IMG/VR virus record: IMGVR_UViG_2648501165_000014
Length of the DNA stretch: 3,772 bases
Strand: one strand, 5' to 3'
DNA from: a virus
Taxonomy: Duplodnaviria > Heunggongvirae > Uroviricota > Caudoviricetes
Below, piece by piece: positions 1 to 3,772 of this stretch. The notes below the pieces were generated by a model, which was given only the letters and a program-made list of their open reading frames with translations, was not told the origin of the DNA and did no database searches. The first letter of the stretch is position 1. Each line of letters starts with the position of its first letter. Made by a program: the position numbers and the translations under genes.

Positions 1-357
1 TTAAAAAATCAGAACGCCGTGCGGCCTCAACACCCGAAAGGCTTCTTTAAATCTCTGTCGCGAATCATCACGCCAGGCATCTTTATTCAGCCGTCCATAT
101 TTCTTTCCCATCCAGGCGTTATCACCAACACTCTCAAGATGCGGAGGGTCTAATACAACCATCGAAAAAGATGCGTCTGCAAATGATAATGCACGAAAAT
201 CTGCGATAATGTCAGGGCTGATAATCAAGCGTCTCCCATTGCGTAATGTGTATCCTTCTTTTCTGATATCGCTGAATATCGCCCGTTCGTCAGACTTATC
301 GAACCAGAACATGCGGCTGCCACAGCACATATCAAGAATGGTTGCCGGTGCACTCAC
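1..357 (-). CDS. Putative SAM-dependent methyltransferase-like protein (amino-methyltransferase motifs), 118 aa, possibly truncated
   Basis: Complete ORF with GTG start at 357-355 and TAA stop at 3-1. The start overlaps the upstream gene's TGA by 4 nt (GTGA), suggesting translational coupling. The protein has an N-terminal motif-I-like segment (ILDMCCGSR) and, about 60 aa later, a DPPH tetrapeptide preceded by hydrophobic residues (MVVLDPPH), resembling motif IV (D/N-P-P-Y/F/H) of N6-adenine/N4-cytosine and RsmD/HemK-type methyltransferases. It ends just after a strand-like segment (LRPHGVLIF), so it is short for a full methyltransferase fold. Family assignment is by motif only. Confidence 0.55.
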   Translation of the reverse strand: MSAPATILDMCCGSRMFWFDKSDERAIFSDIRKEGYTLRNGRRLIISPDIIADFRALSFADASFSMVVLDPPHLESVGDNAWMGKKYGRLNKDAWRDDSRQRFKEAFRVLRPHGVLIF

Positions 358-776
358 TGCGCCACGTCCTGAAAATTACCCTGATAGAAAGCCAGTATGC
401 GCTGCATAACTTCGCTCTTCCGGCACTCGCGACAGATTCTGTTTAGGCGACTGTCGTAGCGACGTATTTCTCCGTCAGGTGATGACCAGATAAGGTCCGG
501 ATCAACCACAGCAGGTTTCTTCACCTTTGCCCTCGAGAGTTTTTTGCGGGCGTTTTGCCAGTCCTTACGCGCCTGTTCAGAGGGGAATAACCCGTAGCCG
601 GAGTTGTATACATCGCCACTGGCTACCAGCTCTCTGGCAAGAACGCTCATCAGATATCTAGTCGCACCTGTTTTAGCTTCCAGTTGCCGTAACGTCTCAC
701 GGCCGCTCTGGCGCACGAGTTCCACCACCTGCCATTTAATTTTTTCCCGCTCTTCTTGTGTAAAAACTTTTGCCAC
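354..776 (-). CDS. Hypothetical protein, 140 aa, putative winged-helix/HTH DNA-binding N-terminus with a basic central region
   Basis: ORF with GTG start at 776-774, preceded on the - strand by a strong Shine-Dalgarno (AAGGGGGA) about 5-12 nt upstream, and TGA stop at 356-354. It lies 40 bp downstream of the O-like gene and is coupled to the downstream methyltransferase-like gene. The N-terminal ~60 aa (EEREKIKWQVVELVRQSGRETLRQLEAKTGATRYLMSVLARELVASGDV) has the look of a winged-helix domain; the centre is basic (ARKKLSRAKVKKP); there is a single CxxC (CRECR). No confident family assignment. Confidence 0.55.
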   Translation of the reverse strand: MAKVFTQEEREKIKWQVVELVRQSGRETLRQLEAKTGATRYLMSVLARELVASGDVYNSGYGLFPSEQARKDWQNARKKLSRAKVKKPAVVDPDLIWSSPDGEIRRYDSRLNRICRECRKSEVMQRILAFYQGNFQDVAQ

Positions 777-816
777 AAGTCCCCCTTAAAATTACCTCAT
801 GACCTGAAATCAACAC

Positions 817-1782
817 TTATCCTCTGAAACCAGGCGGAATTTCTGTATCCGGTTCAGAAATATGATTAACACAACGCTGTACAGGTGAACGTCCCAGGCG
901 GATGACCAGTTCGTCCCATTTTTCGCGGAGCTTTGACGGGCTCATGATGTTTTTTACCCAGAATGGATCTCGCTGAACCCGACCAAACATTTCGCAAATT
1001 TGTCTGTGGCTTCTGCCATCCAGCATCCGCATTGTGCGCACGTCATTGGCCCAGGCAGTCCAGTTAGGCTCTTTTGGTCGCATGATCTCGCCATCATCAC
1101 TGGCTGCCTGTTCGTAGAGACCCACGATCCGCCCCCAGATCCACTGCGCACACGCCAAATCCTCCCTGCTACCCCACTGGCGTTTTTTCGCACTAAACAC
1201 AACCGCGTCGGAGTTCCGGGTTAAAAAATCCTGTTCAGTCGTCTGCGGGTCCGGTTGCGAAGCTTCCGGACGAAAAGTGTTTTTATTCTCTGTAGTAATC
1301 TCTGTTGTATTCTCTGTAAGATCATCAGGCCATTTTGACCCGATGACATTGGGTCGTTTTGAACCAATGGAGCGTTTCATTTTGACCTCTTCCATCGTGT
1401 CATTTTGACCTGATGGAGCGGCGCATTTTGAACCGATGGATTCGCTCAATTTGCCACCATCTAAAAGCTCGCTCCCATAGTTGATCGTGTAGAAATTGGT
1501 CATATCGCGCTTTGATTTATTGAGCTTTTCACAACGCAAAAGCCCCAGCGTTTTCAGACTTGCAAACGCGCGCTTTAACGTTGACTCTGACCAGAATGGG
1601 AACTGTTCCAGCCATTGTTCCGTTGTGTTATAAATCCAGCGAACACCATCACATTCCATGCCGGAGTTGGTATCTCTCAACCAGTAGTGCAGTTGTTGCA
1701 AAACAATGGCTTCGTTTAAGCCAATTTTCATTGCCAGCTGCGTGTTTATAACCAGTGGGCGTTCAGCAAAAAGAAGGCTCAT
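817..1782 (-). CDS. Replication initiation protein, lambda O-like (phage replisome-organiser N-terminal winged-helix domain) with embedded iteron origin
   Basis: Uninterrupted frame 817-1836. The preferred start is ATG at 1782-1780 (MSLLFAERPLVINTQ...) with a GGATGG-like SD; the ORF-track start at 1836 is TTG with no SD. The N-terminal region (FAERPLVINTQLAMKIGLNEAIVLQQLHYWL...STLKRAFASLKTLGLL) resembles the O/DnaD-like replisome-organiser winged-helix. The central linker is encoded by tandem DNA repeats (SIGSK...SIGSKRPNVIGSK and TENTTEITTEN), as the lambda O gene contains ori-lambda iterons. Confidence 0.8.
   Translation of the reverse strand: MSLLFAERPLVINTQLAMKIGLNEAIVLQQLHYWLRDTNSGMECDGVRWIYNTTEQWLEQFPFWSESTLKRAFASLKTLGLLRCEKLNKSKRDMTNFYTINYGSELLDGGKLSESIGSKCAAPSGQNDTMEEVKMKRSIGSKRPNVIGSKWPDDLTENTTEITTENKNTFRPEASQPDPQTTEQDFLTRNSDAVVFSAKKRQWGSREDLACAQWIWGRIVGLYEQAASDDGEIMRPKEPNWTAWANDVRTMRMLDGRSHRQICEMFGRVQRDPFWVKNIMSPSKLREKWDELVIRLGRSPVQRCVNHISEPDTEIPPGFRG
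1286..1318. repeat. Three tandem 12-bp repeats (core TCTCTGT) in an AT-rich stretch flanking the iterons; candidate DNA-unwinding element of the origin
   Basis: TTCTCTGTAGTA / ATCTCTGTTGTA / TTCTCTGTAAGA, with the TCTCTGT core at 1287-1293, 1299-1305 and 1311-1317 (exact 12-bp period). They lie next to the iterons on the 3' side of the array in the O-gene reading direction and are flanked by T-rich sequence (GTGTTTTTATTC 1278-1289). This matches the iteron-then-AT-rich layout of lambda-type origins. Confidence 0.45.
1331..1460. repeat. Iteron array (putative replication origin) inside the O-like gene: about 5-6 direct repeats, consensus CATTTTGA(C/A)CnGATGGAGC, ~24-bp phasing
   Basis: Seen directly: CATTTTGACCCGATGACAT (1331), CGTTTTGAACCAATGGAGC (1355), CATTTTGACCTCTTCCATCG (1379, second half inverted), CATTTTGACCTGATGGAGC (1401), CATTTTGAACCGATGGATT (1425), and a degenerate CAATTTGCCACCATC (1448). 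Start-to-start spacing is 24, 24, 22, 24, 23 bp. Confidence 0.7.
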
Positions 1783-2222
1783 AATTCCATCCAGCTTTTT
1801 GTTGGTATTGCTGTCGATACGCAAGTTTGAAAGCAATTGCTTTTTCTATAAGTTCGTCAGTTTCACGATCCACTACGGCAGGATCAGCAAAAAGCAGTCC
1901 GGACTCCACCACATCGCCATATTCTTTGNNNNNNNNNNCACGTGATGCTTTTTCCGTCAGTAATTTCACGATACAACCTGAAATCATTAATCCGGATAGC
2001 CTCCATAATTGCAGGCACTAGCGCCGTGAACTTTTCACGCTTATCCCTGGTGTCGATAGCCTTCCAGCGTTCAAATATCTTCACTCGATTAACGCCAAGC
2101 GCTCGCTGATCAATCGCGCCACCTTCATATGTGACACGCTGAACATCGATGTTCGGGCGCTCTTTCAAAGCCGGCGCTCGTCTGATGTAAGAGATAAAGA
2201 AATCGATGAGCGAAGTAATCAT
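1763..2222 (-). CDS. Hypothetical protein of unknown function, reading frame interrupted by a 10-N assembly gap (apparent frameshift; possibly annotated as pseudogene or two fragments)
   Basis: The frame from ATG 2222-2220 (SD GGGAGAG 6 nt upstream; the ORF track's TTG at 2240 is less likely) is open down to the N-run and terminates 14 codons beyond it. A second frame is open from just upstream of the N-run to the stop at 1765-1763, running 55 codons past the gap. The simplest reading is one gene of about 150-160 aa whose frame is scrambled by the placeholder gap. The product is not recognisable. Confidence 0.45.
1929..1938. other. Assembly gap (run of 10 N)
   Basis: Literal nnnnnnnnnn in the sequence. 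The length is probably a placeholder, so the true sequence and length are unknown. Confidence 0.95.
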
Positions 2223-2457
2223 GATTGTCTCTCCCGGCAAATGGGTATCCGAAGAGCAGTTAATTGCGCTGAAAGGAATAAAAAAAGGTACGTTAAAAAA
2301 GGCCCGGGAAAAATCGTTTATGGAAGGAAGGGAATATAAGCATGTCGCTCATGACGGTATGCCATGGGATAACAGTCCATGCTTTTACAACCTGGAAGAA
2401 ATTGATCGCTGGATTGAGCGCCAGGCATCAGCGAGACCAAGACGTCATCTTACTTGA
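2206..2457 (+). CDS. xis: Excisionase-like protein (Xis; recombination directionality factor)
   Basis: Small basic ORF (83 aa from ATG 2206, or 78 aa from ATG 2221) immediately upstream of, and co-oriented with, the integrase (19 bp from the xis stop to the int ORF start). The sequence (WVSEEQLIALKGIKKGTLKKAREKSFMEGREYKHV...PCFYNLEEIDRWIE) has the character of enterobacterial prophage excisionase-like proteins. Stop is TGA at 2455-2457. Start codon is ambiguous, as neither ATG has a strong SD. Confidence 0.7.
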   Translation: MSEVIMIVSPGKWVSEEQLIALKGIKKGTLKKAREKSFMEGREYKHVAHDGMPWDNSPCFYNLEEIDRWIERQASARPRRHLT

Positions 2458-2491
2458 CTAAAAGCCACACTAACTAATGAGAGAAGTTGAA

Positions 2492-3772
2492 ATGAAATAT
2501 CCGACAGGCGTGGAAAACCATGGAGGGAAATTACGTATCTGGTTTGTTTATAAAGACGTAAGAGTCAGGGAAAATCTGGGGGTTCCTGACACAGCAAAAA
2601 ACAGGCGCGTTGCAGGTGAACTACGCTCCTCTGTTTGTTACGCAATAAAAACTGGTGTTTTCGACTATGCAAAACAGTTTCCCTCCTCACGCAATCTGGA
2701 AAAATTTGGTGAGGCCCGACAAGATTTAACCATAAAAGAACTGGCTGAAAAATTTCTGGCACTGAAAGAAACTGAAGTCGCCAAAACATCACTCAACACA
2801 TACCGTGCCGTCATCAAAAATATCCTGAGCATAATCGGTGAAAAAAATCTTGCCTCATCGATTAATAAAGAAAAATTACTGGAGGTTCGTAAAGAGTTAC
2901 TGACTGGATACCAGATCCCCAAAAGTAACTATATTGTTACACAACCAGGGAGATCGGCTGTAACTGTAAATAATTACATGACAAATCTTAACGCCGTGTT
3001 CCAGTTTGGTGTTGATAACGGTTACCTGGCAGATAATCCGTTTAAGGGGATCTCGCCATTAAAGGAATCAAGAACCATTCCGGATCCTCTTTCGCGGGAA
3101 GAATTTATCCGTCTTATCGATGCGTGCAGAAATCAGCAAGCAAAAAATTTATGGTGTGTTTCTGTTTATACTGGAGTTCGCCCTGGTGAGCTGTGTGCAC
3201 TTGGATGGGAGGACATAGATCTGAAAAATGGAACAATGATGATCAGGAGAAATTTAGCAAAAGACCGTTTCACGGTACCAAAAACACAGGCGGGAACCAA
3301 TCGGGTCATTCATCTTATTAAGCCAGCAATCGACGCTCTCCGGAGTCAGATGACATTAACGAGACTGAGCAAAGAGCATATCATTGATGTTCACCTCAGA
3401 GAGTATGGCAGAACAGAAAAACAAAAATGCACCTTTGTTTTTCAACCTGAAGTGTCAGCGAGAGTAAAAAATTATGGTGACCATTTTACCGTTGACTCAA
3501 TAAGGCAGATGTGGGACGCAGCGATAAAACGTGCCGGACTCCGCCATCGAAAATCATATCAGTCGAGACATACTTATGCCTGCTGGTCGCTGACAGCTGG
3601 TGCTAACCCGGCATTTATAGCAAACCAGATGGGCCATGCAGATGCGCAAATGGTATTTCAGGTATACGGAAAATGGATGTCTGAAAACAATAATGCACAG
3701 GTAGCTTTGTTAAATACACAGTTAAGCGAGTTTGCCCCAACCATGCCCCATAACGAAGCAATGAAAAATTAA
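2492..3772 (+). CDS. int: Tyrosine site-specific recombinase (phage integrase, lambda-Int family with N-terminal arm-type DNA-binding domain)
   Basis: The ORF is open from ATG 2477. The preferred start is ATG 2492 (MKYPTGVENHGGKLRIWF...), which has a purine-rich SD-like GAGAGAAG 5 nt upstream, whereas 2477 has none. The C-terminal catalytic domain shows the conserved tyrosine-recombinase signature residues: R in VYTGVRPGEL, the H-x-x-R box in SRHTYACWSL, H in MGHAD, and the nucleophile Y in VFQVYGKWM. The N-terminus (GGKLRIWFVYKDVR) resembles the arm-binding domains of enterobacterial prophage integrases. Stop is TAA at 3770-3772, the window end. Confidence 0.9.
   Translation: MKYPTGVENHGGKLRIWFVYKDVRVRENLGVPDTAKNRRVAGELRSSVCYAIKTGVFDYAKQFPSSRNLEKFGEARQDLTIKELAEKFLALKETEVAKTSLNTYRAVIKNILSIIGEKNLASSINKEKLLEVRKELLTGYQIPKSNYIVTQPGRSAVTVNNYMTNLNAVFQFGVDNGYLADNPFKGISPLKESRTIPDPLSREEFIRLIDACRNQQAKNLWCVSVYTGVRPGELCALGWEDIDLKNGTMMIRRNLAKDRFTVPKTQAGTNRVIHLIKPAIDALRSQMTLTRLSKEHIIDVHLREYGRTEKQKCTFVFQPEVSARVKNYGDHFTVDSIRQMWDAAIKRAGLRHRKSYQSRHTYACWSLTAGANPAFIANQMGHADAQMVFQVYGKWMSENNNAQVALLNTQLSEFAPTMPHNEAMKN

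Follow-up and report, generated by a model that had tools for sequence, protein, structure and literature searches.

Deletion Scar Between the Integration and Replication Modules of a Qin-Type Escherichia coli Prophage

The stretch of DNA analyzed here, called the window throughout, is 3,772 nucleotides long and belongs to the viral record IMGVR_UViG_2648501165_000014 (Caudoviricetes). According to the list of open reading frames (ORFs) and the family scans, it contains six genes in total: an excisionase and an integrase gene on the plus strand (xis-int), standing back to back with a minus-strand series composed of ydaT' (the remainder of a regulator gene), a lambda-O-like initiator gene, a DUF977 gene and a methyltransferase gene. 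The subject of this report is the junction between these two blocks, and its origin in a deletion within a Qin-type lambdoid prophage of Escherichia coli. A first-pass annotation, made from the sequence of the window without database searches, had described a rightward xis-int pair that directly abuts a divergent replication module with one gene in between, and this layout is borne out by the ORF list and the family scans. The absence of a repressor, a Cro-like gene or an antiterminator that it reported is likewise confirmed, as no ORF in the window matches any of these families in the Pfam and PHROG scans. The intervening gene, on the contrary, is not the unrecognized gene that it was taken for: it is a YdaT/CII-like regulator without its first 35 codons. 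The features at the junction are listed below, with reference to PhiR42_1, an intact phage of the same type.

1763-2172, minus strand: 3' part of ydaT (CII-equivalent regulator), codons 36-173 of the intact gene; collinear with the 'cII' gene of PhiR42_1 (7617-8138) down to its position 7721
2171-2172, no strand: deletion joint, a 'CC' present in either flank, where the intact phage has 5,054 bp more
2173-2222, minus strand: 17 new N-terminal codons (MITSLIDFFISYIRRAP) of the ydaT' fusion ORF, antisense to the 5' end of xis and its upstream region
2206-2457, plus strand: excisionase gene xis (Pfam DUF1233, E=1.6e-31; PHROG 539, E=1.4e-35), 100% identical to PhiR42_1 2380-2631
2492-3772, plus strand: tyrosine integrase gene int, 426 residues as annotated, with an in-frame upstream ATG at 2477 (Pfam Arm-DNA-bind_2, E=3.8e-22, and Phage_integrase, E=4e-18), 100% identical to the int of PhiR42_1

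In a megablast comparison with 5,426 complete E. coli genomes, the window maps to a Qin-type prophage beside rspB. Among phage genomes, PhiR42_1 covers window positions 1-2172 and phage Tritos positions 2171-3772; both matches stop at the same two bases. Direct blastn alignment places the two halves on PhiR42_1 itself: positions 1-2172 correspond to 9900-7721 of the phage and differ solely at masked bases, and positions 2171-3772 correspond to 2666-1065 at 100% identity. The window is collinear with, and near-identical to, a complete lambdoid phage on either side of the joint.

PhiR42_1 (PV340562.1) is a 48-kb lambdoid genome, deposited as a complete phage from ECOR13. In canonical lambdoid order, its left part reads int, xis, exoVIII, ydfD, further genes, ydfC, ydfB and cI, facing cro, cII (YdaT), O, LygF and the methyltransferase gene. 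Farther on come relBE, hokD, rem, ydfU, Q, the lysis genes, the terminase, head and tail genes, and pin. The deposited record has a terminal redundancy of 781 bp (L007, 3-783 = 47888-48668), pointing to a circular assembly. No paper on PhiR42_1 was found in the literature, and its infectious status rests on the database record and this circular (terminally redundant) assembly.

The missing 5,054 bp hold exoVIII, ydfD, dicB, the small RNA (sRNA) DicF, ydfC, ydfB and a ydfA-like gene. They also hold dicA (cI-like), dicC (cro-like), the intergenic operators and the first 35 codons of ydaT. In Qin, DicA and DicC are the analogues of CI and Cro, and the promoters dicCp and dicBp are the analogues of pR and pL (PMC10448788). 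The immunity region is absent from the window because this block, situated exactly between xis and ydaT, was deleted. A functional prophage would have a cI/cro switch with pL and pR between its int-xis arm and its replication genes; here, there is none. DicF of PhiR42_1 was found by Rfam at 76.7 bits, and dicB is identical to the annotated dicB of phage Tritos. In the deposited record of PhiR42_1, neither dicB (5456-5644) nor the DicF sRNA (5819-5870) is annotated.

The two modules are adjacent through a deletion scar; theirs is not a core that is compact by design. With a probability of about 0.93, the window comes from a lambdoid E. coli prophage of the Qin (PhiR42_1-like) type, of which it represents the left arm minus an internal 5,054 bp; the element is a decayed prophage, as opposed to a satellite or a plasmid-like element. 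Objects of this kind are already known: it is a deletion variant of the cryptic Qin-type prophage, in a grounded state.

The gene next to xis is recognizable by its family matches (Pfam YdaT_toxin, 24.6 bits for a cut-off of 21; PHROG 163 'CII-like transcriptional activator', E=7.8e-27), and the ydfX remnant of K-12 matches window positions 2080-2172 at 100%. With the masked bases restored, the fusion ORF encodes 155 amino acids, of which the last 138 are residues 36-173 of the intact 173-residue protein. In place of the first 35 codons stand 17 unrelated ones, and the intact CII equivalent expected of a functional prophage is missing. From its sequence, ydaT' reads as a truncated regulator joined to junk. 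The ATG of the fusion ORF lies at 2222 on the minus strand, preceded by GGAGAG, and overlaps the region of the xis start codon (2206, plus strand). Since the two starts overlap, the divergent genes are left without any intergenic region, which is a sign of a scar and not of a divergent promoter region.

YdaT takes the functional place of lambda CII in a group of lambdoid phages; its DNA-binding domain, of the helix-turn-helix (HTH)/POU type, is N-terminal, and a tetramerization helix is C-terminal (PMC9986795). The 35 residues missing here have a weak alignment (E=0.06) to PDB entry 3c4r, at the beginning of its HTH/POU domain. A phmmer search of the intact YdaT variant against the PDB sequences gave no match at E<=0.01, with 3c4r and 8bt1 as weak matches at E of about 0.06-0.08; hence, the structural reading of the truncation is tentative.

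The same junction is found in a 1.28-Mb contig (L009), where the order is ynfE/F...rspA-rspB-int-xis-ydaT'-O-DUF977-methyltransferase, followed by the insertion sequences (IS) IS66, IS3 and ISNCY and by flxA-ydfV-relB. These first 10 kb, to relB, are collinear with the genome of strain UTAK-1, the closest complete one. The latter continues with relE, hokD, rem, ydfU, a Q-type antiterminator, cold-shock genes, a lysis cassette and nohA/terminase. The portal, protease, decoration and capsid proteins come next, then a full tail set (one gene frameshifted) and the tail fiber, and the far end is formed by pinQ, ydfK, ynfT and a 5'-truncated ydfJ. Thus described, the late region (Q, lysis, terminase, head and tail in canonical order) is present in UTAK-1 as well as in PhiR42_1. 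The full late region and the far attachment (att) core were read in UTAK-1 only; the lineage of the window, represented by the 1.28-Mb contig, was read for the 10 kb up to relB.

The element occupies the rspB-ydfJ interval, the Qin site, and rspB adjoins int in UTAK-1 (L001), in the 1.28-Mb contig and in a second contig with the same joint (L010). The att core, identified from a comparison of the two host junctions with the attP of PhiR42_1, is GAAATCCATAA. It is found at both UTAK-1 junctions and in the phage attP, and the int-side copy starts 36 nucleotides past the window end, which is also the int stop. The sequences compared are CTTGAAATCCATAATTCA for attP, CTTGAAATCCATAAATTCA for the int-side junction and CTGGAAATCCATAATTCA for the far junction, in the truncated ydfJ. 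In UTAK-1, about 48 kb separate the two cores (L001 25062-25079 and L011 23629-23646). When the prophage ends were searched directly for att repeats, just an 11-bp match came up, of borderline significance.

At the base level, the intact phage reads AAAGCC/CAGAATG in ydaT and TGCAA/CCGGCG upstream of xis (the slash marks the breakpoint), and the window reads AAAGCC/GGCG. UTAK-1 and OkiPb01711 have, over the same span, AAAGCCCAG, a 1,240-bp element and ACCGGCG. In UTAK-1, this element (L001 22184-23423) is 99% identical to IS911 and frameshifted. The IS911 breakpoints in the two genomes are 3 nucleotides and 1 nucleotide from those of the window on the two sides, and UTAK-1 retains four native nucleotides (CAG and A) absent from the window. 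The IS-bearing state can therefore not be derived from the window by insertion. Apart from the IS, UTAK-1 is 99.9% identical over 20 kb to the two contigs with the window's joint (L009, L010) and shares their IS66, IS3 and ISNCY insertions.

These breakpoints suggest a route in three steps. IS911 would have inserted in ydaT; an IS-adjacent deletion would then have extended to just upstream of xis, giving the state kept in UTAK-1 and OkiPb01711. Finally, the IS plus four flanking nucleotides would have been lost between two 'CC' dinucleotides, giving the state of the window. The loss of the block joined xis-int directly, back to back, to ydaT'-O-DUF977-methyltransferase. The entry of IS911, an adjacent deletion and the exit of the IS make up the most likely route and the economical reading of the breakpoints.

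The same end state could also have been reached without IS911, if illegitimate recombination through the 'CC' microhomology had deleted the 5,054 bp in one step. In the intact phage, CC is indeed found at both breakpoints, and a direct deletion gives exactly the joint of the window. However, UTAK-1 and OkiPb01711 have the same lineage-specific flanks, with breakpoints only 3 nucleotides and 1 nucleotide away. For breakpoints so near each other within a 5-kb interval, two independent events are very unlikely, and the one-step deletion is considered an unlikely origin of the scar.

Scars in this region are not restricted to the window. Six genomes (L001-L006) have six different ones between xis/int and ydaT/O: an IS911 from ydaT to upstream of xis; a scar from dicC to int; another IS3-family element, from ydaT to exo; an IS66 from ydfB to int; a scar from O to exo; and one from ydaT to exo. 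The six scars point to a recurrent and independent loss of the dicA-dicC-dicBF region. Such losses may represent a purging of the toxic dicBF module along with its repressor.

In a phage of the Qin/PhiR42_1 type, the pL (dicBp) operon would have xis-int at its distal end, and ydaT, O and the genes beyond would be transcribed from pR (dicCp). Both repressors and the operators lie inside the lost block, and with them the pL- and pR-equivalent promoters. In a crude consensus scan, the surroundings of the joint are free of sigma-70-like sites on both strands. A site directed toward xis-int comes no nearer than about 2 kb upstream (plus strand, 183-210), and one directed toward ydaT'-O comes no nearer than about 1.25 kb upstream (minus strand, 3500-3471). 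Across the window, five such sites were found, for 5.5 expected by chance. Stripped of their native promoters and regulators, the int/xis and O/ori modules are probably silent. The prophage is probably grounded: no repressor-based induction, no firing of the origin from pR, and no Int or Xis from pL or from a CII-dependent promoter would be expected.

In int, xis, O and the repeats of the origin (iterons), the sequence does not differ from the complete phage, and the att core on the int side is still there. The remnant might not be inert. It might excise or replicate with help, when a co-resident or superinfecting phage of the Qin/mEp460 type provides the regulators. The truncated YdaT, keeping its recognition and tetramerization helices, might be dominant-negative and interfere with Qin/mEp460-type phages. 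As a related possibility, the repeated dicA-dicBF losses might reflect selection, with the sequence 'IS911 in, adjacent deletion, IS911 out' as a hit-and-run route of prophage grounding. Taken together, these options are given a slim chance.

The remaining features of the window belong to the replication side:

1-357, minus strand: class I S-adenosylmethionine (SAM)-dependent (DNA) methyltransferase gene (PHROG 954 'DNA methyltransferase', E=6.7e-58; Pfam Methyltransf_11, weak)
354-776, minus strand: DUF977/LygF gene, 'Ren-like exclusion protein' in PHROGs (Pfam DUF977, E=3.7e-28; PHROG 142, E=1.3e-46)
817-1782, minus strand: lambda-O-like replication initiator gene, 321 residues as annotated elsewhere (PHROG 391 'replication initiation O-like', E=1.1e-91, residues 17-321)
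1284-1319, within the O-like gene: three tandem 12-nucleotide repeats (TATTCTCTGTAG) beside the iterons (repeat family D3)
1323-1438, within the O-like gene: five iterons of about 23 bp (CATyrGnyCATTTTGAmCyGATG-like), repeat families D1 and D2, spaced by 23-24 nucleotides
1929-1938, no strand: run of 10 N standing for 18 real bases (TTTAACCCGGCGATCATG), from the alignment to UTAK-1 (L001) and the two contigs L009 and L010

The initiator is labeled 'DNA replication protein O' in PhiR42_1 and 'hypothetical' in RefSeq, and its mechanical ORF extends to a TTG at 1836. It has no match in the Pfam scan, despite the one to PHROG 391. The iterons are the presumed origin, positioned as in lambda. The 12-nucleotide repeats code for a repetitive T/E/N-rich linker in the O-like protein. 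No gene for a P- or DnaC-like helicase loader was found after the O-like gene, this place being taken by DUF977/LygF and the methyltransferase. The latter corresponds to PhiR42_1 9544-9900 and is annotated as WP_001310834.1 in the UTAK-1 locus (L001); it is the final gene of the early-right block inside the window. The Rfam scan of the window matched zero families.

The slot downstream of DUF977/lygF is variable. The window has the SAM methyltransferase (1-357) in this position, strain H6 has a retron Ec67-family reverse transcriptase/endonuclease (L006 3719-5554), and ECCHD184 (L004 8173-11882) has two AAA ATPase genes split by an IS3-family element. The slot looks like a moron or defense-gene hotspot.

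In the window, ydaT' is shown as two overlapping minus-strand ORFs (1763-1987 and 1884-2240): 10 N in place of 18 bases shift the frame, and one gene is displayed as two. Judging from the alignments, the N run is masking and neither an IS nor a scaffold gap over a repeat. The possibility that it hides the IS of the best-matching genomes was rejected, as only 18 ordinary bases are masked and the IS site is 230 bp away.

An assembly artefact would account for the joint if an IS911 copy had been collapsed or skipped in a short-read assembly, the true genome being like that of UTAK-1. In agreement with this, the closest complete genomes carry IS911 at the joint, the IS-less form is in none of the complete RefSeq genomes, and the window contains an N run. 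The exact-match search for the joint (CTCTTTCAAAGCCGGCGCTCGTCTGATG) also gave no hit in genome_contigs (one genome per species), viral_contigs or metagenome_contigs. The lineage with the IS-less joint was located through the exact fusion ORF. This 155-residue ORF, which only the IS-less joint can encode, is present on 170 public E. coli contigs from many assemblies, some of them larger than 1 Mb. The two contexts fetched, the 1.28-Mb contig and L010, are identical to the window except for the masked bases. Moreover, the joint also lacks the four native flanking nucleotides, which a simple repeat collapse would not remove, and the N run, 230 bp from the joint, hides ordinary bases. With the exact ORF on 170 contigs and two identical contexts, an artefact is very unlikely.

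Several points weigh against the deletion reading or parts of it. The IS-less joint was found as a contiguous match in 0 of the 5,426 complete RefSeq E. coli genomes; for this reason, the far side of the element has been seen only to 10 kb (relB) in the lineage of the window. The order of events, IS first and then IS loss, is read from the breakpoints only. The probable silence of the modules rests on the crude consensus scan and on the loss of the known promoters. Lastly, the mapping of the 35 lost residues on helices alpha1-alpha2 is tentative, as it rests on the weak alignment to 3c4r (E=0.06).

The preference of the first-pass annotation was for a satellite, such as a phage-inducible chromosomal island (PICI), or an integrative plasmid-like element, with a naturally compact core of int/xis and rep/ori. 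Taken alone, the 3.8-kb window does show int, xis and an initiator with iterons, and no repressor. Both halves, however, are ~100% identical to a complete 48-kb phage that has 5,054 bp more at the joint, and the full phages PhiR42_1 and Tritos rely on the same integrase (99.5-100%) and att core. Neither an AlpA-type regulator nor a primase-type Rep is present, and close homologues of all the genes occur in complete phages. The matching places in E. coli genomes are chromosomal in 11,975 cases out of 11,999 and on plasmids in 24, and no plasmid Rep or Par family was matched in the window (Pfam, PHROG).

The PICI criteria of Fillol-Salom et al. 2018 (PMC6092414) lead to the same result. PICIs have a unique att site never occupied by prophages, and here int and the att core are common to PhiR42_1 and Tritos. 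Instead of 12-15 kb, the element measures about 48 kb in UTAK-1 and carries genes for lysis, terminase, capsid and tail. Their organization (int, AlpA in E. coli, Pri-Rep) is not found either: the neighbor of int is a DUF1233 excisionase, and the initiator is lambda-O-like. No satellite-exclusive genes were found, and no interference or capsid-redirecting candidates were seen in the window or the examined flanks. On every criterion examined, the element differs from a PICI, and a satellite or plasmid-like origin is hardly tenable.

The fallback of that annotation, a decayed prophage remnant, is the option that stands. The extension of the flanks that it had proposed gave a full morphogenesis set in UTAK-1, with att cores about 48 kb apart, which indicates a prophage and not a satellite. 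Against its own preference, it had set the finding of standard lambdoid immunity and late regions around the window, with a known regulator as the unknown gene. By this test of its own, the preferred reading fails: the gene is a cII equivalent, and lambdoid early-right and late flanks in canonical order exist in near-identical genomes. The immunity genes are deleted.

When a short window happens to cross the scar of a deletion in a prophage, it can look like a satellite with its compact int-rep layout; comparison with an intact relative resolves such a mimicry at once. Strains with the scar lack DicA, DicC, DicB and DicF, known from the literature as Qin-encoded modulators of cell division and phage receptors; the consequence for E. 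coli biology is modest. Although the sequences of its integrase and excisionase genes and of its origin look intact, the Qin-type prophage of such strains can probably no longer leave its site. On a small scale, the recurrent and independent IS-associated deletions over this interval illustrate the purging of toxic prophage modules.

Among the known systems, the Gram-negative PICIs, like EcCICFT073, resemble the window only superficially, by an integrase near a replication module and a short stretch without a cI-type repressor. Unlike them, the element of the window shares its att site with full phages, has no AlpA or Pri-Rep, and spans about 48 kb with structural and lysis genes. The replication module of lambda is similar in its iteron cluster in the middle of the initiator gene, which lies downstream of the gene in the cII position. 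In contrast to lambda, the O-like protein has no Pfam match to lambda O, and DUF977/LygF and a methyltransferase follow instead of a P/DnaC-like loader. PhiR42_1 is the closest: int, xis, the 3' part of ydaT, O with its iterons, LygF and the methyltransferase are ~100% identical, and the attP core is the same. The difference lies in the 5,054 bp that extend from xis to codon 35 of ydaT in the phage and are absent from the window.

The Qin (Kim) prophage of K-12 occupies the same rspB-ydfJ site and is likewise defective and IS-riddled. It has int next to rspB, a ydaT remnant, relBE, hokD, rem, ydfU, the Q-like ydfT, essD/rrrQ/rzpQ, nohA, pinQ, ydfK and the truncated ydfJ. K-12, however, retains the dicA-dicC switch and dicBF, whereas most of its replication and morphogenesis genes are lost and its int is truncated. 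In the window variant, it is the other way round: the immunity switch and dicBF are lost, whereas int, xis and O/ori are retained, as are the head and tail genes in UTAK-1.

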